A stretch of DNA of 64,000 nucleotides, taken from NCBI GenBank assembly GCA_034659915.1, contig JAYEID010000002.1:2089-66088 (forward strand). The letters are read 5' to 3'. The stretch is from Patescibacteria group bacterium (GTDB lineage Bacteria; Patescibacteriota; WWE3; JAUXAW01; JAYEID01). Below the pieces are notes generated by a model. It had not been told where the DNA came from and ran no database searches. It worked only from the letters and a program-made list of their open reading frames with translations. Position numbers and translations under genes: made by a program. Below, one piece after another: positions 24,669 through 62,209 of this stretch (the first letter of the stretch is position 1; every line of letters begins with the position of its first letter).

Positions 24669-24926
24669 ATGTTCTACGTTTATGTATTGCTGAGTGAAAA
24701 AGATGGTAAACGTTATATTGGTTATACCGAGGATTTGAGAAAGCGCGTTAAGGAACATAATTCAGGTAAAGTTAAATCAACCAGACATCGAAGACCTTTA
24801 CACTTGATTTATTATGAGGCTTGTCTAAATAAGAAAGATGCGAAGGCGAGAGAAAAGTATTTGAAAGGTGCGTGGGGATATAAATTTTTGGACAAACGCC
24901 TTAAGAATTTCTATGAAAGTTTATGA
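24669..24926 (+). CDS. GIY-YIG nuclease family protein (85 aa, catalytic domain only)
   Basis: FYVYVLLSEKDGKRYIGYTEDLRKRVKEHN matches the GIY...YIG...R...E...N motif set. Starts 7 bp after the stop of the 1293-aa gene. Confidence 0.8.
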   Translation: MFYVYVLLSEKDGKRYIGYTEDLRKRVKEHNSGKVKSTRHRRPLHLIYYEACLNKKDAKAREKYLKGAWGYKFLDKRLKNFYESL

Positions 24927-24965
24927 ATTTCGGGGGCAAGTATCCCCGAATTTTGGGACAAAATT

Positions 24966-25083
24966 CTTGGGGTGGCCCCAGAGGCTCTTTTATCTTGGAC
25001 TTTTAATTAGTAGTGTAACTTTGCTGGGTTGCTTGAGTTATCTAGGTTATGCTCTCGTAACTAACGCTAATAAACGCGAATGA
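24966..25083 (+). pseudogene. orphan gene fragment paralogous to the C-terminal TM anchor of CDS 20781..24662
   Basis: Encodes GWPQRLFYLGLLISSVTLLGCLSYLGYALV, against PQRLFYLGLLISSLTLVGCVSYLGFAV at the end of the 1293-aa protein. DNA differences are mostly synonymous or conservative. The upstream part of track ORF 24868..25083 overlaps the GIY-YIG gene out of frame. Confidence 0.45.
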
Positions 25084-25116
25084 CTGCGCGAATTCACGCG
25101 AAATCTATAAGCAGTA

Positions 25117-27331: not shown

Positions 27332-27401
27332 TTTTTTTTGTTATTTTCTATTCCTTATTTTCTATTTCCCATTTCCTATTGATTATGCTATAGTTACGGT
27401 A

Positions 27402-27969: not shown

Positions 27970-28140
27970 ACGGTGTGGAAGATACTGGATAAGAAATAAG
28001 AAATAGGGAATAATGGATAATGAATAGGAAATAAGAGATAAGGAATAATAAATAAGGGATATAGGGAATAAGAAATAGGGGATAGGGAATACTAAATACT
28101 AGATACCAAATACTAAATACCAAATACTGAATACGATTTA
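27970..28140. repeat. purine-rich degenerate repeat block (GGAATAAG / AATACTAAATAC units), mirror of 2330-2660 block
   Basis: gataagaaataagaaatagggaataatggataatgaataggaaataagag... Similar blocks at 27335-27400 (CT-rich) and 28530-28610 (AG-rich). Confidence 0.6.
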
Positions 28141-28533
28141 ATGGTGAAATTTATAAAAATCATAAAGACAAAGATCAGAAGTTTGTTTGCGTTAATTAAG
28201 GGTAAGTTGGGGCCGTTTCGTTACTATCTTTTGGCATTTACAGCCCTCGGGATTTTTGTGGATACCTTCTTTTTTGACTTTACCTCTGATTTGGTTATTT
28301 TGTTTTTTATTTTTCTTTGGATTATGGCAAGCTGGCTTTTTTCTTTTGAAGGGAGGGTTTCGGTGGGGGTTGGCCTTGGGTTCTTGGTGCTTTGCCCCTT
28401 TCTTTTAATTTTTAAGGCGGATTTTATTGCAGAAAAGGCAGCTGTTTGGGCGTATATGTTTCTTTTGGTGGGTGTTGTACATGAAATCATTGAGTTTAGG
28501 GAGGAAAGAACGCAGGAAGCAAATACTAAATAG
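28141..28533 (+). CDS. small hypothetical membrane protein (130 aa)
   Basis: Three predicted TM helices. Embedded between repeat blocks. Weak. Confidence 0.3.
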   Translation: MVKFIKIIKTKIRSLFALIKGKLGPFRYYLLAFTALGIFVDTFFFDFTSDLVILFFIFLWIMASWLFSFEGRVSVGVGLGFLVLCPFLLIFKADFIAEKAAVWAYMFLLVGVVHEIIEFREERTQEANTK

Positions 28534-28639
28534 TAAATAGTAAATAATAAATAAGAAATAATGAATAAAAAATAGGGAATAATGGATAAGGAATAAGAAG
28601 ATACGTTGTTCCATTGTTCTAGGGCTCGATTGCTAGATA

Positions 28640-28922
28640 CAAACGTTAATGAACGCGAATACTACAAACACGAATCTACGCGAATCAAAAGCGAATAAAC
28701 GCGAATGTAGATTATTGGTGTACTAGTTAGCTGGGTATGAAAAGAAACCTAAGCTCCCGTCATTCTGGAACGGAGGTTGTCAAGGCGGAGTGATAGAATC
28801 TCGGCCCAAAGGGCCGGACGGGAGCGGATAAAAGGAAGACTCTATCAGGCTCGGGGGACCGAGCCTTCCAGAGTGACTGCCTTTTTGTACAAGTTACTAG
28901 TTACGAGTTGCCAGTTACTAAA
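28640..28922. repeat. intergenic composite: G-family ACGCGAAT repeats (28640-28710), hairpin-rich segment (28745-28885), H-family AGTTACTAGTTAC repeats (28888-28922)
   Basis: The same G and H repeat families recur inside CDS 29007..30950 (29826-30088, 30787-30822) and after genes at 25065-25105, 32642-32696 and 33388-33490. Confidence 0.55.
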
Positions 28923-29006
28923 TACTACATACTAAATATTAAATATTAAATATTAAATAGGGATATCAAGTAATGGGTTGCTAACTATTAACTACCAAAA
29001 AAACCA

Positions 29007-30950
29007 ATGACCTCGCAATTCAAAAAAACACTCCTTTTTATTATTATTTTTTCCTCGATTTTCCTTTTTTACTTTTCTCCGCTTGTGTTTAATGTATTTG
29101 GTTCAAGAACTTTGGGTTATTGGGGCGACAAGTTGGGGTTAATTGCCCGCTTGAGGGAAGGGCGCATCGGCTTTTTGAATCAACCTGCGTTACGCTTGAT
29201 GATTGGAATTCTTCGATCGGGTTTTTCTCCTTTTGGAGTTTATAATTTTTTGGTTCTTTTGAGTTTTCCTTTGACCTGCTTTTTTTCTTACCGGTTTTTC
29301 TGTAAAGTTCTGGGCAACGGAAAGACCCTTGAAAACAATAAGACCCGTCCTTCAGGAAAGGACGGGTCTTTCTATCTCTGTGGGGATGGGGGTTTCCTCT
29401 CTTTTCTCTCCTTTGTGCTAGCATTGATTTTTACTTTTTCCCCTTATCATATTTATAAAAGTTATAACCACGTTGACCTTGCGCAGATTTGGGTTTTTCC
29501 TCTTTTCTTTTCTGCGCTTTTGGATTTTGATTATGCAATTAGAAAACGTTTTTTGAGCAGTCATCCTGATCCCGACTTATCGGGAGAAGGATCTACTGCG
29601 AGGGACCTATACAGCAGGGGATTCTTCACCCCCGACAGGTCGGGGGTTCAGAATGACGAGGGAAATATTGTGCAAGCTACTTTGAGGCTTTCTGTTGTGA
29701 TGGCGGGGACGACGTTGATTTCTAATTATTATGGATACTTTACCTTGCTGATAATTGCGATATATTTCACTATTGAACTTTTACGAAATATTGAGAAATA
29801 TGTGCATAGATTTGAGTTATCAGCTACTGATTTACGCAGATTGATAACGGATTTACGCCGATTGTTGAAAACGAACGCTAATCAACGCGAATTGAAAACG
29901 AATATACGCGAATTGAAGAAGGATTTTCGCGGATGGATAGCTGATTTACGCCGATCAGAGGATTCACGTGGATTAATAGCTGATTCACACAGATCGGAAA
30001 ACGAAATGCCGAATGCGGATGGCGGAATGCGGATGGCGGAACGCGGTTTACAAATTACCAGTTACCTGTTACTAGTTGCAAGTTACGTTCTTTTCACCGT
30101 TCCTTTTTTGCTGCCCTATATACGCGGGATTTATTTTGGGGATACTGGTGGTGATGAAGTTGTAGCTCGGGTGGCAACTGGTGTTTCTCGGCGAGATGTG
30201 ACGGATTTTGTGGCTTTTTCCGCGCGGCCGTGGTATTACATTGTTCCCTCTATTGACCACCCTATTTTTGGCAACTTTGCTCAAGGTGTACACGACTGGT
30301 TTGAAAGCACGGGATACTTCCTTTTTGATGATTTTTTTTGGGAAGAACATTCGGCGGTCTATTTAGGAATAGTTAATTTAATTTTGACAGGTTACGCTAT
30401 ATATAAGTTATTCTGGGCAAAAAGAACCGCCGAATGCGGGGTAGAAAATAATGAATATGGAATAAGGAAAGAGGAGGAAATGGTAGATGATAAATTGCAA
30501 ATTTCGAACAATGAAAAAAATGGCAGGGGTACTAGTTACGATCCGCCAGCTGGCGGAACGAATTACATTTCTCTCTTTTTCTGGCTTGGGGTTGGTCTGT
30601 TCATTCTTTCCATGCCGCCGTTTATTTCGTTGGGTTTTGCAAAAATTTATTTACCTTCTTATCTTTTGATGAAGGTCTTTCCGATGTTTAGGACAATTTC
30701 TCGCTTGGGGCTTCCTTTGCTTCTTTGCGTTTTGGTTCTTACCGGCTACGGTTTACAGTTGTTGAAGGAGCGATTTTCTCTTTCTCGTACTAGTTACTTG
30801 TTACTAGTTACCAGTTATTGTTTCCTAGCGCTCTTCGAATTCTACTTCCCGCCGGTGATTAAAAAGGTTCCTCCCGGAGGGTGGCGAATTGATTTCGATA
30901 TTATTTCCGAAAATCCAGAGGTGCGTGAGGTGAATATTATTGAAGAGTAA
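29007..30950 (+). CDS. multi-pass membrane protein (GT-C-like) with a mosaic of in-frame repeat insertions
   Basis: TM-rich N- and C-terminal portions. The central segment is built from F-family hairpins (29568-29648), G-family 'gatttacgc/acgcgaat' repeats (ATDLRRLITDLRRLLKTNANQRELKTNIRELKK...), GCGGAATGCGGATGGCG repeats, H-family repeats, and a family-C hairpin at 29340-29372. Confidence 0.5.
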   Translation: MTSQFKKTLLFIIIFSSIFLFYFSPLVFNVFGSRTLGYWGDKLGLIARLREGRIGFLNQPALRLMIGILRSGFSPFGVYNFLVLLSFPLTCFFSYRFFCKVLGNGKTLENNKTRPSGKDGSFYLCGDGGFLSFLSFVLALIFTFSPYHIYKSYNHVDLAQIWVFPLFFSALLDFDYAIRKRFLSSHPDPDLSGEGSTARDLYSRGFFTPDRSGVQNDEGNIVQATLRLSVVMAGTTLISNYYGYFTLLIIAIYFTIELLRNIEKYVHRFELSATDLRRLITDLRRLLKTNANQRELKTNIRELKKDFRGWIADLRRSEDSRGLIADSHRSENEMPNADGGMRMAERGLQITSYLLLVASYVLFTVPFLLPYIRGIYFGDTGGDEVVARVATGVSRRDVTDFVAFSARPWYYIVPSIDHPIFGNFAQGVHDWFESTGYFLFDDFFWEEHSAVYLGIVNLILTGYAIYKLFWAKRTAECGVENNEYGIRKEEEMVDDKLQISNNEKNGRGTSYDPPAGGTNYISLFFWLGVGLFILSMPPFISLGFAKIYLPSYLLMKVFPMFRTISRLGLPLLLCVLVLTGYGLQLLKERFSLSRTSYLLLVTSYCFLALFEFYFPPVIKKVPPGGWRIDFDIISENPEVREVNIIEE

Positions 30951-38164: not shown

Positions 38165-38198
38165 GAAAGGACGATATGAAAGGACGGGTCTTGCGAGC
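38165..38198. repeat. family-C half-site (GAAAGGACGggtcttgcgagc with local 13-bp duplication), right-hand inverted terminus flanking RAYT-1
   Basis: gaaaggacgatatgaaaggacgggtcttgcgagc. Its reverse complement matches 38883-38903 (gctcgcaagacccgtcctt). Confidence 0.75.
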
Positions 38199-38219
38199 TA
38201 CTGTTTTTATAGGAAAAAG

Positions 38220-38873
38220 TCAATCTAGCATTAAATATTTCAGATTGAGTTTTTCTGGTTCGGTTATTGGGGCTTCTGTGAATTTCTTGTATTCTACGTT
38301 TTTTGGTTCTGGGAGTTGGTCCAGTGTAGGATTGGTATTGATTAGGTTGTTGGGTTCATTGCCAATGTAAATGTGATAGCTGGACCACGGGTAATCTTCT
38401 GGGTTTCTAACTATGCCGGATTGACACGGGTTAAGATGAATATATCTGGAGAGGTTTAGTAAATCTGCATCGTCTGCTACCTCGCGTGCTTTAAATCTTC
38501 CTTGAAAAAGGGACCCGACACGCTCATATTTTTGATTGAAGTACATTACATAAGTGGTGCCAATTGTTCTCATAAAGTTACTTATGCTTTTTTCTTGGTC
38601 TAGTTGTTTGAGGATAAAGTGGAAGTGGTTGGGCATAAGTGTGTAAGCAATTAGACTAACTTTTTCTCTAAATTTGCCCAAGTTGGAAAGTCCCATCCTT
38701 GCGGAAAGGACGGGACTTTCCTTTCCCTTTTCTCTTAATATTAAATAGTATCGGAGTATGTTTGTGAAGTTTTTATAATCGGCGTAATCTACAAAAATTG
38801 TACGCTTTTCAACTCCGCGGTTGTAAATGTGGTAGTAGCCACCTTTGTGGAAAATAGTTTTTCGATAAGGCAT
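38220..38873 (-). CDS. REP-associated tyrosine transposase (RAYT; IS200/IS605-like HUH Y1 transposase)
   Basis: GYYHIYNRGVEKRTIF (TnpA_REP N-motif), HUH motif MPNHFHFIL, and C-terminal RYIHLNPCQSGIVRNPEDYPWSSY (catalytic Tyr plus NP...WSSY). It contains its own family-C hairpin at 38686-38722. Confidence 0.8.
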   Translation of the reverse strand: MPYRKTIFHKGGYYHIYNRGVEKRTIFVDYADYKNFTNILRYYLILREKGKESPVLSARMGLSNLGKFREKVSLIAYTLMPNHFHFILKQLDQEKSISNFMRTIGTTYVMYFNQKYERVGSLFQGRFKAREVADDADLLNLSRYIHLNPCQSGIVRNPEDYPWSSYHIYIGNEPNNLINTNPTLDQLPEPKNVEYKKFTEAPITEPEKLNLKYLMLD

Positions 38874-38882
38874 AAGATTAAG

Positions 38883-38918
38883 GCTCGCAAGACCCGTCCT
38901 TGCAAACGTCCTTGCAAA
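38883..38918. repeat. family-C half-site (gctcgcaagacccgtcctt plus duplicated cgtccttgcaa), left-hand inverted terminus flanking RAYT-1
   Basis: gctcgcaagacccgtccttgcaaacgtccttgcaa. Inverted relative to 38165-38198. Confidence 0.75.
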
Positions 38919-38921
38919 ATA

Positions 38922-41036
38922 CTATTCGCAGAGCGTTTTGCCGTTTGGGTATGTACTTTCTTTCCCGTAGATTTTGGTTATTGGGTGGTTAGCGATGAAG
39001 TATGTTTTTAGTTCTATGTAGCTATCCAGAGTTTTGTCTAGACTTTCGTAGTACCAGCTGATAGGAGCCTCGACTATAATTATATTATCTGCGTCTTTTT
39101 CAAAAACGTTTTCTTGGTCTGCAATTGGTTCTTTTCCAAGGTAAAAAGCGGGAATGCGAGCCTTCTCGTTGGTACTGTAGCTCCCTGTTAAACAACCGTT
39201 TTTGTAAAGCTTTGCTATCTTTTCCCAACCACGTCTGTGTGGGAAACCAAAGATTCCTTGGACTTTGTTGGCAAGATTTTTGTCAATACTAATCATTTCT
39301 CGACCAAAAACTTTTTTACTTCCCCACATATATTCGGGTCTTTTTTCGACGAAGATTTTGTGGTTGTAGGTTAGCGTTGTAGTAGTAATATAGATACCGA
39401 CTAATACTGTAATAAGTTGGACTGCCCGCCCAATTCCCCAGAACCAGGTTCTGGGACCGGTCTTAGAACCTGATTCTTTTCCTTGGCCAGCTCTAGACTT
39501 TGCGTTGAGAAGGGAAAAGGTTTTCGCAATCGTATAACCTGAAAGGATAAACAAGGGGATAAAGATAATATAAACATGGGTGCGGGGAGTTTTGTTGAAG
39601 AACAAGTAAAAACAAGAAGAAGCTAGAAACCAGGCAAAAAGGCTGGCTTTGATTTTATCAATTTTTGGGGTAAAGAAAAGAACGCCAAGGGTAATTAGGG
39701 TTAAAGTGTAAAACATTAAAGTGGATCCGCGCGGTTTGATCCATTGGGTAGAAAACCAGAAGGTGAAAATTAAGGTAACAGGTAATAGGTAATAGGTGAT
39801 AGGGATTAGTTTGCGGAAGGCGGAGAGCGGTGTGCGGAAAGCGGATGTATTTTTGAGAAGAGGGAATTGAGAATTGCGAATGATGAAATATAGAGAAAGG
39901 CAAGAAAGAATTACCAACGCAAAAATCATCTCTTTCGGCATATAGAATTTCATAAGAATTTTGCTATAAAGGGTGCGGGGCATGAAACCACTCCCTAGGA
40001 CTCTTCTTTGCAAATAGTTTGAGGTTTCTCCGGCGGTGGAGTTTAGAAAAAAGGGAACGTAGAAACTTGCTGTTAGAATTAGAAAAGGTGTGAAGAAGGC
40101 TAGGGCTTTCTTTTTCCAAAATCCAAGCTTTATAGAATTGCAGTCATTCTGAGGTCTCCCGGGCTGCTGGGAGGCCGAAGAATCCTCTGCTGTATGCTGC
40201 GTGCTTTGTTGTAGGTGGTCTTTAGTCGCGGGGGATTCTTCGTCGTTTGGAGACTCACTCCTCAGAATGACACGGGATATTAGATCTTTTCCGAAATAGA
40301 AGCAAATAAAGGCAAGGAAGGTTAGCGCGTCGTAGTGGGCGAGTACTGCAATTCCGAAGAGTAATCCGGCTAAACAAAAGTAGCCGCATTCCCCAGCCCC
40401 TGGGGCTGCAGTCAAAGAAGCCCCAGGGGCTTCTCCTGCGGCGGCCGGGGAATCGCCCGGCTTTGATTTTATATTTGCAATTCCAAACAACGATCCTGCT
40501 AGTGGAAGCTGCCCAATTCCCCAGAACCAGGTTCTGGGACCGGTCTTAGAACCTGGTTCTTTTCCTTGGCCAGCCTTTTTGTTCTCAACAGCAAGGAGAA
40601 ATAAGATAATTAAACCAAGTAACAACTGCACAAAGGCTTGGTATTGGGTAATCCTTGAAAAAGCAATGAACAGACCGTTAGTTCCTGCTAGTGCTGCACT
40701 AAGTATGCCTGCCCAATTGTTTTTTGTGAGCTTTCGTGTAACTTCGAAAAGTACATAGACAAAGGCAATACCAGCAAGGGCGTAAGGCAGGCGAATTATC
40801 CATTCTTCCCAGGTACCTGTTAAGTTATATGTCAACCAATTGATAACAAATTGTAAAGGGCCTTTATCGCGGCTCAGGAGGTATTGAATAAAGCTGCCCT
40901 GAAAGTAACGGAAGTCTAGAGTAAGAATTTCGTCACCTTGGTATTCCGCGTATCCTAAATCCTGCAACCGAACCCAGGCGGAGTAGGCGAGCGTGATGAT
41001 AAGTGTTATCTTTTGTGTTAGTTTTAGTTTTTTCAT
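38922..41036 (-). CDS. multi-pass membrane protein (GT-C-like) carrying two family-B and one family-A in-frame inserts
   Basis: TM-rich throughout. The peptide AGQGKESGSKTGPRTWFWGIG occurs twice, encoded by family-B elements at 39431-39490 and 40514-40573. AAAGEAPGASLTAAPGAGECG is encoded by a family-A element at 40384-40444. Confidence 0.5.
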   Translation of the reverse strand: MKKLKLTQKITLIITLAYSAWVRLQDLGYAEYQGDEILTLDFRYFQGSFIQYLLSRDKGPLQFVINWLTYNLTGTWEEWIIRLPYALAGIAFVYVLFEVTRKLTKNNWAGILSAALAGTNGLFIAFSRITQYQAFVQLLLGLIILFLLAVENKKAGQGKEPGSKTGPRTWFWGIGQLPLAGSLFGIANIKSKPGDSPAAAGEAPGASLTAAPGAGECGYFCLAGLLFGIAVLAHYDALTFLAFICFYFGKDLISRVILRSESPNDEESPATKDHLQQSTQHTAEDSSASQQPGRPQNDCNSIKLGFWKKKALAFFTPFLILTASFYVPFFLNSTAGETSNYLQRRVLGSGFMPRTLYSKILMKFYMPKEMIFALVILSCLSLYFIIRNSQFPLLKNTSAFRTPLSAFRKLIPITYYLLPVTLIFTFWFSTQWIKPRGSTLMFYTLTLITLGVLFFTPKIDKIKASLFAWFLASSCFYLFFNKTPRTHVYIIFIPLFILSGYTIAKTFSLLNAKSRAGQGKESGSKTGPRTWFWGIGRAVQLITVLVGIYITTTTLTYNHKIFVEKRPEYMWGSKKVFGREMISIDKNLANKVQGIFGFPHRRGWEKIAKLYKNGCLTGSYSTNEKARIPAFYLGKEPIADQENVFEKDADNIIIVEAPISWYYESLDKTLDSYIELKTYFIANHPITKIYGKESTYPNGKTLCE
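39431..39490. repeat. family-B palindromic element (CCAGGTTCTGGGACCGGTCTTAGAACCTG), in-frame in CDS 38922..41036
   Basis: caattccccagaaccaggttctgggaccggtcttagaacctgattcttttccttggccag. Copies at 40514-40573 (same gene) and 55030-55090 (plus-strand gene). Confidence 0.8.
40384..40444. repeat. family-A element in-frame in CDS 38922..41036
   Basis: ccgcattccccagcccctggggctgcagtcaaagaagccccaggggcttctcctgcggcgg. Confidence 0.85.
40514..40573. repeat. family-B element, second copy in same CDS
   Basis: caattccccagaaccaggttctgggaccggtcttagaacctggttcttttccttggccag. Confidence 0.8.
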
Positions 41037-41063
41037 TTTCTATTTCGAGTTAATTAAAAATCT

Positions 41064-41270
41064 CTTTTCCCTTTTCGAGCGATTCTTGGAGCGAGAAATC
41101 ACAGTAAGAGAATTTATTCCTATTTTGACTTAATGAGACTTTCCGCTTTGTTGGGATTCGTTCGAAATGGTCCATAGGGTTACTTACCTTTTCGAAGGAG
41201 TCCCGACTGAGGAATCACAATATAAGAAGATCCCTATTTTGATTTCTCCCCAGGCCTCGAAAAGGGAATT
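41064..41270. repeat. two tandem ~100-bp repeat units (TTTTCCCTTTTCGAGCGATTCTTGGAGCGAGAAATCACA...TTTATTCCTATTTTGATTTCTC) upstream-flanking GIY-YIG gene
   Basis: The units share a conserved TTTTCGAG...CTCGAAA inverted pair. Two further copies lie at 41590-41775. Confidence 0.7.
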
Positions 41271-41276
41271 GTAGAT

Positions 41277-41585
41277 TCAAGGTTCTTTCCAAGTTGTCTT
41301 AATTGTTTCATTCAGATGTTCTATTTGTTTTTTTCTTTCTTCTGACATATTGTCGATTAGATCTTCCTTCTTCTTTTGGCTATAGTCTTTGATTTGCCTT
41401 TCTCGTTTCAGGGCCTCTCTTTTAGTATCACACATTTCAAAATAAACTAATTTCAACGGTCTTCTTGTTTTGGTATAACTAGGGCCAAGGCCATTGTGGT
41501 GCTTCCAGAATCTTAACTTTAGATCGTTGGTCATCCCAGTATAATATCGTGCAGTTCTAAGTTTAAGTATGTAAATGAAAAACAT
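41277..41585 (-). CDS. GIY-YIG nuclease family protein (102 aa)
   Basis: FFIYILKLRTARYYTGMTNDLKLRFWKHHNG (GIY/YIG-type N-motif; R...H.N) plus a basic C-terminus. Confidence 0.7.
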   Translation of the reverse strand: MFFIYILKLRTARYYTGMTNDLKLRFWKHHNGLGPSYTKTRRPLKLVYFEMCDTKREALKRERQIKDYSQKKKEDLIDNMSEERKKQIEHLNETIKTTWKEP

Positions 41586-41589
41586 TTTA

Positions 41590-41775
41590 TTTCTTCCTTT
41601 TCGAGCGATTCTTGGAGCGAGAAATCACAATAAAAGGATTTATTCCTATTTTGATTTCTCAGAGTATTTCGAAATGGGTGATAGGTTTATTTCCCTTTTC
41701 GAGTGATTCTTAGAGCGAGAAATCACAAAAGAAAGATTTTTCCTATTTTGATTTCTCGGCAGACCTCGAAATGGA
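41590..41775. repeat. two further tandem copies of the ~100-bp repeat flanking the GIY-YIG gene
   Basis: ttccttttcgagcgattcttggagcgagaaatcacaataaaaggatttattcctattttgatttctc / tttcccttttcgagtgattcttagagcgagaaatcacaaaagaaagatttttcctattttgatttctc. Confidence 0.7.
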
Positions 41776-43167
41776 TCTGTTGCCCTGAAAAGTTTCTAGA
41801 TAAGTTTCTGCAACAGCTTCCCACCTATAACCCTTCGCCATTTCTTTCGCATTTTCTGCTAAGTTTCTGCGTAATTCTGCATTCTTTTCTAATCTTATCA
41901 TCTCTTCCGCGAGTTCCTCGGCGTTTTTAGTTTCGAAGAGAAGTGCGGTTTTTCCATCTTCAAGTATTTCGGCGAGGCCCCCAGTCTTAGAGGCAATTAT
42001 TGGTTTACCTGCTGCTGCTAACTCTAAGGCAACAATGCCGAAGGGTTCTCTGTACGAGGGGATAATTGTAAAGTTTGCGTTTTGTATGTATTGAAGCAGT
42101 TCGATCCCTGATTTGAATCCCACAAAGCTGATTTTTTCCTCTAGGTTTTTTACTTTTACTAATTTTTCTAATTCTTTGCGGCTGGTACCGTCGCCGACAA
42201 TAACTAAATTACTGTTCAACTCGTCTTCTACTTTTGCGTAGGCTTTGATTAAGGTATCCACACCTTTTTTTGGTACTAGACGGCCGAGGTAAAGAATGTA
42301 GGGGGAAAGACTCGCCAATTTTTGAGGGTCGGCTAACTTCTCAACCGCCGCACCTGCCTGCCGGCAAGGCAGGTTCCCTAGCCTCTGGGGCTGCGGAAAA
42401 GAAGCCCCAGGGGCTTCTCCTGCGGCGGCGCAGGCACCTACTTGGGCTAAGGGGCAGCCGGTGCAGGATGATTTTGTGGGTGATAAGTCCCGTCCTTTTT
42501 GTAAGGACGGGACTTTACTTTTTAAAAGGTCTCCGATTTGGAAAAATTTTTGGTCAACACCGTTAGCAATTATTTCAATTTTCTTCTCGGCTTGGGGAAA
42601 GTTATTGGTAAGGTCTTCTTTTATGTATTCGGAGTTAACAATAATTTTTCTTGCGCGGTTAATTAGTTTTTTTAGGAAGAACCGGTACCACAGCTTTTTT
42701 CCAAAAACTTGTAGATCATTGCCGTGGATGTTGAGGATTAGAGGTGCAGGGTTGGGTGAGAATAGGTCGCCGCATTCCTCAGCCCCAGGGGCTGGGTCCG
42801 CAGAAGCCCCTGGGGCTTCTCCTGCGGCTAACGCTAACCAGACATAGACCGAGGAATCGTCCGGAAAGTGGTAGTTGACAATGTCCGGGTTATATTTAGA
42901 AACAAGTCGAACGAGATTGGTTAGACCGGTTAGGAAACGAAAGGGGAACGCAAGGAAACCCAGAAGTGATCGCGGTAAGTTTAACCAGACTCGTTGAACA
43001 TCTATGCCGTCCACTTGAGCTTTTTTCTCTTTTGCCTTACCCATTTGGGAAGCAATAACTAATACTTCATGACCCTTTGCTTTAAATTCTTTTGCCAGAT
43101 TTAAAACAACATTTTCGACCCCTCCAGTAAAAGGAAAAAATCTGGAAGAAATTAAAAGTATTTTCAT
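41743..43167 (-). CDS. glycosyltransferase family 4 (GT-B) carrying two family-A inserts and one family-C insert
   Basis: MKILLISSRFFPFTGGVENVV N-terminus; C-terminal EPFGIVALELAAAGKPIIASKTGG (E-x7-E). Inserts are translated as LAAGEAPGASADPAPGAEECGDL (42769-42828), GACAAAGEAPGASFPQPQRLGNLPCRQAGAAV (42354-42428) and KVPSLQKGRDLSP (42485-42517). Confidence 0.8.
   Translation of the reverse strand: MKILLISSRFFPFTGGVENVVLNLAKEFKAKGHEVLVIASQMGKAKEKKAQVDGIDVQRVWLNLPRSLLGFLAFPFRFLTGLTNLVRLVSKYNPDIVNYHFPDDSSVYVWLALAAGEAPGASADPAPGAEECGDLFSPNPAPLILNIHGNDLQVFGKKLWYRFFLKKLINRARKIIVNSEYIKEDLTNNFPQAEKKIEIIANGVDQKFFQIGDLLKSKVPSLQKGRDLSPTKSSCTGCPLAQVGACAAAGEAPGASFPQPQRLGNLPCRQAGAAVEKLADPQKLASLSPYILYLGRLVPKKGVDTLIKAYAKVEDELNSNLVIVGDGTSRKELEKLVKVKNLEEKISFVGFKSGIELLQYIQNANFTIIPSYREPFGIVALELAAAGKPIIASKTGGLAEILEDGKTALLFETKNAEELAEEMIRLEKNAELRRNLAENAKEMAKGYRWEAVAETYLETFQGNRSISRSAEKSK
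42354..42428. repeat. composite family-D hairpin plus family-A element, in-frame in GT4 gene
   Basis: ctgcctgccggcaaggcaggttccctagcctctggggctgcggaaaagaagccccaggggcttctcctgcggcgg. Confidence 0.8.
42485..42517. repeat. family-C full hairpin (AAGTCCCGTCCTTtttgtAAGGACGGGACTT), in-frame in GT4 gene
   Basis: aagtcccgtcctttttgtaaggacgggacttta. Near-identical copies at 63758-63791, 55603-55642 and 38686-38722. Confidence 0.85.
42769..42828. repeat. family-A element in-frame in GT4 gene
   Basis: gccgcattcctcagccccaggggctgggtccgcagaagcccctggggcttctcctgcggc. Confidence 0.85.
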
Positions 43168-60901: not shown

Positions 60902-62209
60902 TTGATGAAAATTTGTTATGTTTTAAATTCGGGAGACCCCGGTGGGGTGGAACAACACGTTTTGGACCTGACGCGGGGAATGGTTGAACGTGGGCACGAG
61001 GTTTATGTGGTTTGTCCTTGGGGAAAGATGGTTAATAAATATTTTGAAATTGGAGCCCAAGTGCGGATAGATAAGCCCCAACTTGATGTTGACCCCTTTT
61101 ATATTTCACGGTTGGCCCGGTTTATTAATAAGATTCAACCGGATATTTTACATGTGCATATGTTGAAGACAACGGTGAACGGGTTGATTGCGTCTAAGGT
61201 TTTTAGATTGTCTTCTCGTATTTTGGGACAGCCCGGTTCCCCAACTTCCGCAGGAGAAGCCCCTGGGGCTGAGAAATGCGGTGCCCCTTCCTTGCCGGCT
61301 TCTTCATTGCCCTATACAGTTGCGCATATCCATACACCTCTTCCTGAGTGGCAAATTCCCGGGTGGAAGAAGAAGTTAAATATTTTTGTAAATAGGATAA
61401 TTTCTAATTGGGCGGCAGATGTGGTTATTGCTCTTACCGAATCTCGGAAAAGGGTTAAGATTGAAGGGGAGGGGATAGATCCAAAAAAGATACGCGTGAT
61501 ACCAAACGGAGTGGACACAAAAAATATCAAATTACAAATTTCAAATGACAAAGCAGATTACAGAAAGAAGTTGGGAATAAGGGAGGATGCTATTTTGGTA
61601 GGGACGCTATCTCGGCTGACAGTAGAGAAGGGAATAAGTTATTTAATTGAGGCAGTTCCTAAATGGCCAACATACAAAATACAAGATACTAAATGCGAAA
61701 TACTAATTGGGGGGTCGGGGGAGTTGAGAGAGGAATTGGAGGACAGGGCGCGGGAGTTGGGATTACAAGTTTGTGTAGAAGAAAAGTCCGCTGCAGAAGA
61801 AGCCCCAGGGGCTGAAGAATGCGGCGGTTCAGGTACAACGGTTCGGTTTCTTGGTTTTGTGCCCGAAGATGAGAAGTGGGATTATCTTGCTGCTTTGGAT
61901 ATTTTTGTTTTTCCTTCCCTTGCCGAGGGTTTTGGAATTTCTCTTATTGAGGCAATGGTAACTGGGTGTGCTTGTCTGGCTTCTGATTTGGAAGTTCTTC
62001 AGGAAGTAGGCGGGGAGACAGTTGAATTTTTTAGAGCTGGTGATCCGCAGAATTTAGCAAAGAGGCTGGCTGTTTTAATTAAGGACAAGGAGAAAAGGCA
62101 AAGTCTTGGGGATCGTGCTCAAAAGAGGGTGGAAAAAAAATATTCCCTGGAGTTGGTTTTGGATAATTACGAAAATCTTTATAAAGAGTTACGTTTAAAT
62201 TTTTCTTAA
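60902..62209 (+). CDS. glycosyltransferase family 4 (GT-B) with two short family-A in-frame inserts
   Basis: MKICYVLNSGDPGGVEQHVLDL...; C-terminal FPSLAEGFGISLIEAMVTGCACLASD (E-x7-E). The inserts SAGEAPGAEKCGAPS (61249-61282) and AAEEAPGAEECGGSG (61789-61826) are single-core family-A variants. Confidence 0.8.
   Translation: MMKICYVLNSGDPGGVEQHVLDLTRGMVERGHEVYVVCPWGKMVNKYFEIGAQVRIDKPQLDVDPFYISRLARFINKIQPDILHVHMLKTTVNGLIASKVFRLSSRILGQPGSPTSAGEAPGAEKCGAPSLPASSLPYTVAHIHTPLPEWQIPGWKKKLNIFVNRIISNWAADVVIALTESRKRVKIEGEGIDPKKIRVIPNGVDTKNIKLQISNDKADYRKKLGIREDAILVGTLSRLTVEKGISYLIEAVPKWPTYKIQDTKCEILIGGSGELREELEDRARELGLQVCVEEKSAAEEAPGAEECGGSGTTVRFLGFVPEDEKWDYLAALDIFVFPSLAEGFGISLIEAMVTGCACLASDLEVLQEVGGETVEFFRAGDPQNLAKRLAVLIKDKEKRQSLGDRAQKRVEKKYSLELVLDNYENLYKELRLNFS

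Follow-up and report, generated by a model that had tools for sequence, protein, structure and literature searches.

A minimal GIY-YIG nuclease gene packed between hairpin repeats at a glycosyltransferase operon junction in a Patescibacteria genome: a probable Ssn-like module

A 64-kb stretch of a Patescibacteria (Candidate Phyla Radiation) metagenome-assembled genome (contig JAYEID010000002.1; 39% G+C), referred to here as the window, carries a gene for a small GIY-YIG nuclease that is enclosed by palindromic repeat units between two glycosyltransferase genes. We consider it probable, at roughly 60%, that this locus is an Ssn-like module, that is, a gene for a minimal GIY-YIG nuclease set between arrays of the hairpin repeats cognate to it, with gene and repeats forming a functional pair; this reading draws on the sequence and on analogy with characterised loci. 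With a single-domain nuclease between hairpin-repeat arrays, the locus agrees with the Ssn system published in 2025 (Chenal et al., Nat Commun 2025, PMC11893778), of which it is a divergent example, and not with a classical homing endonuclease. The PMT_2/GT39 gene is followed in order by units c1 and c2, the GIY-YIG open reading frame (ORF), units c3 and c4 and the GT4 gene, and all three genes lie on the minus strand:

38922-41036, minus strand: PMT_2/GT39 glycosyltransferase gene (PMT; domain match)
41037-41742: whole block from the PMT start codon to the GT4 stop codon, 706 bp
41064-41175: unit c1, with an intact half-site at 41072-41100 (+)
41180-41272: unit c2, an inverted doublet of half-sites at 41189-41216 (+) and 41241-41263 (-)
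41277-41585, minus strand: GIY-YIG nuclease gene (GIY#2), 102 amino acids (aa), UPF0213-like/Ssn-like (Pfam PF01541, 5e-16)
41590-41682: unit c3, an inverted doublet at 41598-41626 (+) and 41653-41675 (-)
41688-41780: unit c4, an inverted doublet at 41696-41724 (+) and 41750-41772 (-)
41743-43167, minus strand: GT4 glycosyltransferase gene (domain match)

The arrangement proposed in a preliminary description of this DNA, four units of about 100 bp placed two and two around a 102-aa GIY-YIG gene between two glycosylation genes, is borne out. The units measure about 93 nt and share 74-91% pairwise identity. Unit c2 begins 8 nt past the nuclease stop codon; c3 lies immediately upstream of the start codon, and its end provides the Shine-Dalgarno-like AAGGAAG. 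The GT4 stop codon and approximately the last 12 codons of that gene fall within c4, a detail that the preliminary description did not include. The 3' half of c1 is divergent and longer, either replaced or extended, with its complementarity to the first half retained.

Each unit is a nested imperfect palindrome. The inverted pair TTTTCGAG/CTCGAAA, which had been noticed before and is genuine, forms the outer stem of the hairpin (consensus CCWTTTCGA/TCGAAAWGG), and the inner stem is GAGAAATCA/TGATTTCTC. The halves of the unit follow the plan C[CT]WTTTC-GA-(variable distal part)-GA-GAAATCA and form a convergent inverted pair. Folded as RNA, whole units reach -22 to -33 kcal/mol (z -1.7 to -3.8), with z at or below -2 in six of the eight unit/strand folds, and the DNA folding of two units gives -13.5 to -16 kcal/mol (z about -3.6). 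In units of this form, called AT-type below, pairing is kept only between the two halves, and the distal stems of the half-sites are lost.

The repeats cluster at the nuclease gene. The 64-kb window holds no copy of the AT-type unit besides c1-c4, so that all of its AT-type copies bracket this one gene, at 5-12 nt from its start and 8 nt from its stop. The 32-nt core TTTTCGAGCGATTCTTGGAGCGAGAAATCACA occurs three times at no more than 3 mismatches, compared with 0 expected from shuffles, and CCTATTTTGATTTCTC gives 8 matches where shuffles give 1.7. The relaxed half-site pattern WTTYYGA-N4-30-GARRAATC has 10 matches in the window where shuffles give 0.46; seven of them flank the nuclease gene as convergent doublets and two more lie at 1 kb. 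Of the roughly eleven half-sites present in the 64 kb, nine are thus no farther than 1.2 kb from the gene, and the clustering is well above chance.

The orthologues of the window PMT protein (48-52% identity) were traced to their contigs to compare the GT4-PMT junction between relatives. The two genes overlap by 8 nt in L011 and L012 and are separated by a 30-nt gap in L013, and therefore the block at 41037-41742 has been inserted at an operon junction that is otherwise tight. None of these three loci contains a GIY-YIG gene, a half-site or a match to a covariance model that was built from the AT-type copies and used to find diverged relatives. A close relative, L001, whose nuclease is 90% identical, carries the same insertion with fewer repeats (1 + 0.5 units): one full unit, to which c2 is the nearest window copy (86%), stands between nuclease and PMT, and a half unit upstream touches the nuclease ATG. 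In L014 (PMT 49% identical) a single diverged unit occupies the same junction and the nuclease gene is absent. The preliminary description saw a gene inserted into, or propagated with, a satellite-like repeat. Nuclease and repeats are indeed one inserted block, in which the number of repeats differs between the window and L001, but the repeat belongs to a widespread family of doublets built from hairpin half-sites and is not a satellite. The active mobility that was also proposed is not supported: what the comparison shows is evolutionary presence and absence.

The layout of the locus is that of canonical ssnA loci. SsnA of Neisseria meningitidis, assigned to CDD cd10448, consists of a single GIY-YIG domain and is 94 aa long. 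Its binding target is the NTS hairpin (CGTCATTCCCGCGMAVGCGGGAATCYRG) in single-stranded DNA (ssDNA), just upstream of which it cuts, on one strand only, while being inactive on duplex DNA and RNA; in this species the SsnA/NTS pair modulates natural transformation (PMC11893778). The suggestion that nuclease and repeat belong together agrees with a documented and statistically supported pairing of small GIY-YIG proteins and hairpin repeats, since at least one SRM repeat occurs in the flanks of 71% of ssnA homologues, and 42% have SRM on both sides (PMC11893778). The authors also drew attention to the insertion sequence (IS)-like order NTS-ssnA-NTS and to the parallel with RAYT/REP; the main text of their paper contains no mention of Patescibacteria (PMC11893778).

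We compared the window with three such loci, namely the N. gonorrhoeae ssnA locus (L065), in which the repeat is dRS3/NTS, and two loci whose nucleases match the ssnA product in sequence type, from Azospirillum (L062) and from Rhizobium (L063). In all three, convergent (+,-) doublets of about 80-150 nt flank the gene on both sides. The published SRM motif (HGTCWYN0-2YYVSBRHN0-5WNVSBRGN0-2RNCYNB, with a family criterion of at least one match within 500 bp on both sides of the gene) delimits one doublet of 84-85 nt on each side in Azospirillum, and three doublets upstream and at least one and a half downstream in N. gonorrhoeae. With convergent doublets arranged in this way in canonical loci, a tandem array of units of about 100 bp is what such a locus ordinarily looks like. 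In the plasmid collection, loci from Azospirillum, Rhizobium, Novosphingobium and N. gonorrhoeae have the ORF between perfect inverted repeats of 26-33 nt, of the type CCGTCATCCCCGCGAAGGCGGGGATCC. One of them (L062 889-1401, on Azospirillum lipoferum plasmid AZO_p3) is a repeat-flanked GIY-YIG gene between sufB and sufC. In an unrelated metagenome-assembled genome (L059 2889-3330), a GIY-YIG ORF lies within a split nested palindrome, with ATTGCGAG-hairpin-CGAAGCAATC upstream of the ORF and GATCGCTTCG..CTCGCAATGAC downstream. Repeat-flanked GIY-YIG cassettes thus enter operons in other phyla too.

The window locus shares with the Ssn/NTS system a single-domain GIY-YIG protein of about 100 aa, directional hairpin repeats on both sides of its gene, convergent doublets in arrays and the IS-like order repeat-gene-repeat. 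The half-sites of c1-c4 also retain the CATTYC..GRAATC frame of NTS. A graded series can be drawn from CATTCC..GGAATC in Neisseria through GTCATTCTGA..GAAGAATC (window 40145 and 29558; L014 and L008) and GTCATTTCGA..GAGAAATC (L014) to CCATTTCGA..GAGAAATC in c1-c4. Judged by sequence comparison, the window units are AT-drifted relatives of the NTS/SRM hairpins CGTCATTCCCGCG..GCGGGAATC (GTCATTC..GAATC) that flank ssnA. The window differs in its host, in a UPF0213-like protein without the NPxWxDL tail, and in its repeats, which have two GA/GA internal loops and decayed distal stems and fold only as the 93-nt doublet. Neisseria dRS3/NIME likewise comprise short units, delimited by inverted ATTCCC-N8-GGGAAT, in arrays that cluster around particular genes (PMC11893778; L065), although NIME units are larger and more numerous, and belong to another sequence and another phylum.

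The nuclease consists of one PF01541 domain over residues 1-73 of its 102 aa, with no additional domain. In the alignment, the catalytic residues Y5, Y15, R25, H29 and E50 are conserved, as is G17. In size, in its single domain and in its intact catalytic residues the protein agrees with the Ssn family, whose members have about 90-150 aa. The best matches among solved structures are the UPF0213 proteins BH0048 of Bacillus halodurans (PDB 1zg2, 7e-13) and EF2693 of Enterococcus faecalis (PDB 1ywl, 4e-9; phmmer, residues 3-78), which have the same size and single domain; the literature searched holds no function or repeat association for these two. Compared with N. gonorrhoeae SsnA (translated from L065), the nuclease shows 32% identity over 76 aa, a coverage of 74% for the query and 81% for SsnA, with E = 6e-11 from a single pairwise comparison and not a proteome search. 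For Ssn homology, the published criterion demands a BLASTP match against a proteome with E < 1e-10 and a coverage of 75% or more (PMC11893778).

These properties bear on the mobility of freestanding endonucleases put forward in the preliminary description, taken here as that of a classical homing endonuclease. Such an enzyme would break double-stranded DNA (dsDNA) in a target inside the repeat, and its gene would be copied in by repair. The block is an insertion, the half unit of L001 touches the start codon as if the gene had interrupted a unit, and the other GIY-YIG gene of the window comes with a duplicated host-gene tail, which is typical of cassette insertion. Nevertheless, the protein is a bare catalytic domain of 102 aa lacking a DNA-binding domain. 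It has no NCBIfam or PHROG match and none to a homing or group I intron endonuclease family, and its only biochemically characterised relatives, the SsnA proteins, are hairpin-binding, site-specific ssDNA nucleases that are inactive on dsDNA. We therefore regard homing of the classical kind as highly improbable. I-TevI and the Seg proteins have in common with the window protein the GIY-YIG catalytic domain and a gene inserted between conserved genes, but they possess a long DNA-binding domain and cut dsDNA, whereas the window protein is the catalytic domain alone.

Relatives of the units were sought in wider collections. The scan of the genome collection with the unit pattern revealed one other locus, L002 (a Saccharibacteria metagenome-assembled genome), again between two glycosyltransferase genes. 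Among eight matches in the metagenome scan only L008 is genuine, a contig where the unit lies between thrS and infC on the strand opposite to these genes, and the first scan of the viral collection with this pattern gave no match. The covariance model matches G+C-rich relatives at 24-43 bits: three in L014 (one of them within a coding sequence), one more in L008, and others at about 30 loci of the viral-contig collection. The model also picks up a 180-nt relative in an unrelated organism (L017, L018, L020), where it begins 2 nt past the stop codon of a GIY-YIG gene. The common plan of the family is CATTYYGA, a small stem-loop, GARRAATC and a spacer, followed by the reverse complement of the same. 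Two G+C-rich members are present in the window:

40145-40269: GC-rich doublet, GTCATTCTGA-stem-loop-GAAGAATC in both orientations, in frame within the PMT coding sequence
29558-29660: second GC-rich doublet of the family, in frame within ORF 29007-30950

The doublet at 40145-40269, 1 kb from the nuclease gene, is an in-frame PMT insertion specific to the window. The variable part of G+C-rich members forms a strong distal stem-loop, and their half-sites fold in the manner of NTS. The folding energies of GC-type half-sites are -12 kcal/mol in window positions 40140-40190, -14 in 29556-29600 and -9.7 in L002, and those of the control half-sites are -14.1 (L062) and -9.7 kcal/mol (L065).

Several observations weigh against an Ssn-like module. 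The published SRM motif has no match in the whole window, with 9, 4 and 5 matches in the controls L065, L062 and L063; it misses the window units because of their GA/GA internal loops and a CC-for-GT change in the 5' flank. AT-type half-sites taken alone do not fold better than shuffled sequences (-0.8 to -3.2 kcal/mol). An ad hoc UPF0213-type hidden Markov model gives the protein 89 bits and an Ssn-type one 75 bits; a neighbour-joining tree places it on the UPF0213 side (the split has a weak support of 57%); and of the 149 representatives nearest to it in a set of 1.8 billion proteins, 147 score higher as UPF0213-type. The C-terminal NPxWxDL motif, typical of the Ssn-type sequences examined in this analysis, occurs in 0 of these 149. 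These proxy tests lean towards placing the nuclease outside the core Ssn clade cd10448, among UPF0213-like proteins. As to the repeats, none of the 30 viral-collection loci with GC-type elements has a GIY-YIG gene, the available flanks of L002, L008 and L014, which carry an AT-type unit or a close derivative, contain none either, and seven phage-borne UPF0213-like genes have no such repeats. Finally, the clustering at the gene was established over the 64 kb examined. The preliminary description would have abandoned the association had the repeat turned out to be widespread and unrelated to nuclease genes. The family is widespread, and its members mostly stand without a neighbouring nuclease, which is the uninformative direction of the test; in the reverse direction, from nuclease gene to repeats, the association holds.

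Among UPF0213-like GIY-YIG proteins, many representatives (P0044, P0051, P0060, P0075) have N-terminal extensions such as GFWSRDPRFES, GPWFESKH and VGSNPAPAT, which resemble translated tRNA 3' ends. In L021 (351-545) a tRNA and a perfect inverted repeat of 17 bp precede a GIY-YIG gene. These features suggest that UPF0213-like GIY-YIG genes are often placed directly after tRNA genes.

The distribution of the family invites a different account, in which the nuclease is unrelated to the repeats. The units would be ORF-less palindromic elements, similar to miniature inverted-repeat transposable elements (MITEs), REPINs or Rickettsia palindromic elements, moved by another enzyme or by recombination, and they would have piled up in a permissive gap opened when the GIY-YIG gene landed between GT4 and PMT. 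Elements without a GIY-YIG gene in L002, L008, L014 and the 30 viral-collection loci speak for it, as do the element of L014 at the very same junction with the gene absent and the abundance of other palindromic insertions in the window, even within coding sequences. Against it, all AT-type copies in the window closely flank one gene on both sides, and likewise in L001, and the layout equals that of the ssnA/NTS loci, where the link is experimental. We hold this account to be unlikely but not negligible. With respect to the features of MITEs, the units are palindromic throughout, and no target-site duplication is definable from the four tandem copies, L002, L008 or L014.

The likeness to Rickettsia palindromic elements is one of form: palindromes of about 100 nt that stand in frame within coding genes, as do the doublets at 29558 and 40145. 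Ogata et al. are said to have described, in 2000, the in-frame insertion of these elements in protein-coding genes of Rickettsia. Since Rickettsia is listed among the SRM-rich genomes (PMC11893778), the Rickettsia elements and SRM repeats may be related. In N. meningitidis, only 2% of NTS lie inside genes (PMC11893778).

A transposase is encoded 2.2 kb from the units:

38220-38873, minus strand: RAYT-like Y1 transposase gene; the region 38184-38898 includes a perfect 17-nt inverted repeat, GGACGGGTCTTGCGAGC

According to a further alternative, the units are REPIN-like doublets mobilised by the RAYT-type Y1 transposase. The gene is present, with a Pfam Y1_Tnp match at 2e-8 and an NCBIfam REP_Tyr_transpos score of 68 bits (below the cut-off of 80), the doublet architecture is REPIN-like, and the GIY-YIG gene of L016 also adjoins a Y1_Tnp gene. 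REP/REPIN-RAYT systems resemble the window locus in having short palindromes as inverted doublets that form long hairpins, are dispersed and flank a single-copy enzyme gene, but they work with a Y1 (HUH) transposase. The RAYT-like gene of the window is bracketed by its own inverted repeat, which is unrelated to the units and kin to another palindrome family of the window, and the gene is syntenic in L011 and L012, which have no units. Mobilisation by this transposase is very unlikely, and we rejected it because the flanking repeat is a different one.

The inverted repeat GGACGGGTCTTGCGAGC is related to palindromes AAGTCCCGTCCTT..AAGGACGGGACTT at 29340, 38688 (within the RAYT-like gene), 42485 and 63759. 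The RAYT-like gene adjoins PMT in L011 and L012 as it does in the window. In L016 (1727-2942), the GIY-YIG gene next to the Y1_Tnp (RAYT-like) gene belongs to the subgroup of the window's first GIY-YIG gene, which makes this the second case of GIY-YIG and RAYT-like genes close together.

Another reading takes the units for transcribed structured RNAs, be it a cis-regulatory leader, an intercistronic processing site or small RNA genes. The conserved strand and the gene downstream of it point the same way in the window, L001, L014 and L002, the hairpin is stable as RNA, and c3 provides a ribosome-binding site. However, the orientation is opposite to the genes in L008 and in the L014 element within the PMT coding sequence, both strands fold about equally well, family members lie within coding sequences, and covariation is low (6 of 26 pairs in 8 sequences). 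No tRNA or tmRNA was detected in the units by ARAGORN, Rfam returned no family at the gathering score and only chance-level miRNA matches, and intrinsic terminators and sigma-70 promoters in the units do not exceed shuffles. We consider a role as RNA very unlikely. A cis-regulatory RNA in particular, suggested by the L002 element upstream of a glycosyltransferase gene, was dropped in view of the opposite orientation and the copies within coding sequence in L008 and L014.

If the locus is an Ssn-like module, its working can be pictured by analogy with SsnA. The nuclease would recognise and bind the folded repeat in ssDNA, exposed during replication, repair or DNA uptake, and would cut beside the repeat on one strand. 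Such cutting could turn the repeats into hot spots of recombination, copy-number change and spread, and the gene may be carried along with them as an IS-like repeat-gene-repeat cassette. Recombination around the repeats would explain why they are amplified in tandem, why the window and L001 differ, and how the cassette came to the GT4-PMT junction. A bolder version is tentative and, in our view, rather doubtful: the block may be a Patescibacteria IS-like element that is mobile now or was recently, whose UPF0213-like nuclease recognises the whole 93-nt doublet hairpin in ssDNA, and the ORF-less doublets, including those in frame within genes, may be its non-autonomous derivatives. Were this so, hairpin-guided cutting of ssDNA would be shared by a second family of small GIY-YIG proteins, which is very large and as yet uncharacterised, and the locus would supply the first comparative evidence that such cassettes move.

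For Ssn-type nuclease/repeat pairs, IS-like mobility is suspected. To this question the locus contributes a comparison of filled and empty sites at an orthologous operon junction and a variation in copy number between close relatives. Its departures from the published system are of modest interest: a UPF0213-like nuclease, repeats outside the published motif, a host from the Candidate Phyla Radiation, and both filled and empty sites. As the nuclease seemingly comes from a sister UPF0213-like clade and its repeats are missed by the published search motif, surveys based on motifs may undercount such systems, especially in the AT-rich reduced genomes of this radiation. If the pairing is functional, it would offer a new enzyme and sequence specificity for ssDNA tools.

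The window holds further elements. Downstream of the first GIY-YIG gene (24669-24926, plus strand), the C-terminal tail of the 1293-aa ORF that precedes this gene occurs again as a diverged duplicate: the tail reads FPQRLFYLGLLISSLTLVGCVSYLGF before the gene and WPQRLFYLGLLISSVTLLGCLSYLGY after it, at about 24965-25085. A hairpin, AATTTCGGGG..CCCCGAATT, stands directly past the stop codon of this gene (-6.9 kcal/mol as DNA). The segment 24669-25085 looks like a cassette inserted in the 3' end of that upstream gene and bringing a replacement tail. Other families of G+C-rich nested palindromes are represented by at least 12 copies of CCGCAGGAGAAGCCCCTGGGGCTTC and three of GCCCAATTCCCCAGAACCAGGTTCTGGGACCGG, in frame in PMT, GT4 and other genes; palindromes occur at 39447-39500, 40395-40547 and 42368-42827 and at 2982, 3215, 43817, 51300, 55029, 61240, 61783 and 63520. 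The window PMT has 704 aa, compared with 570-657 aa in relatives, and GT4 has 474 aa, compared with 369-381 aa. Many tandem arrays with a 7-nt period (TATACAG, AATAAGG, AATACTA, AAATAAT and others) are also present, several of them intergenic, at 2185-2637, 27342-27380, 27976-28147, 28503-28613, 28888-28973, 30011-30086, 39773-39881 and 61522-61706.

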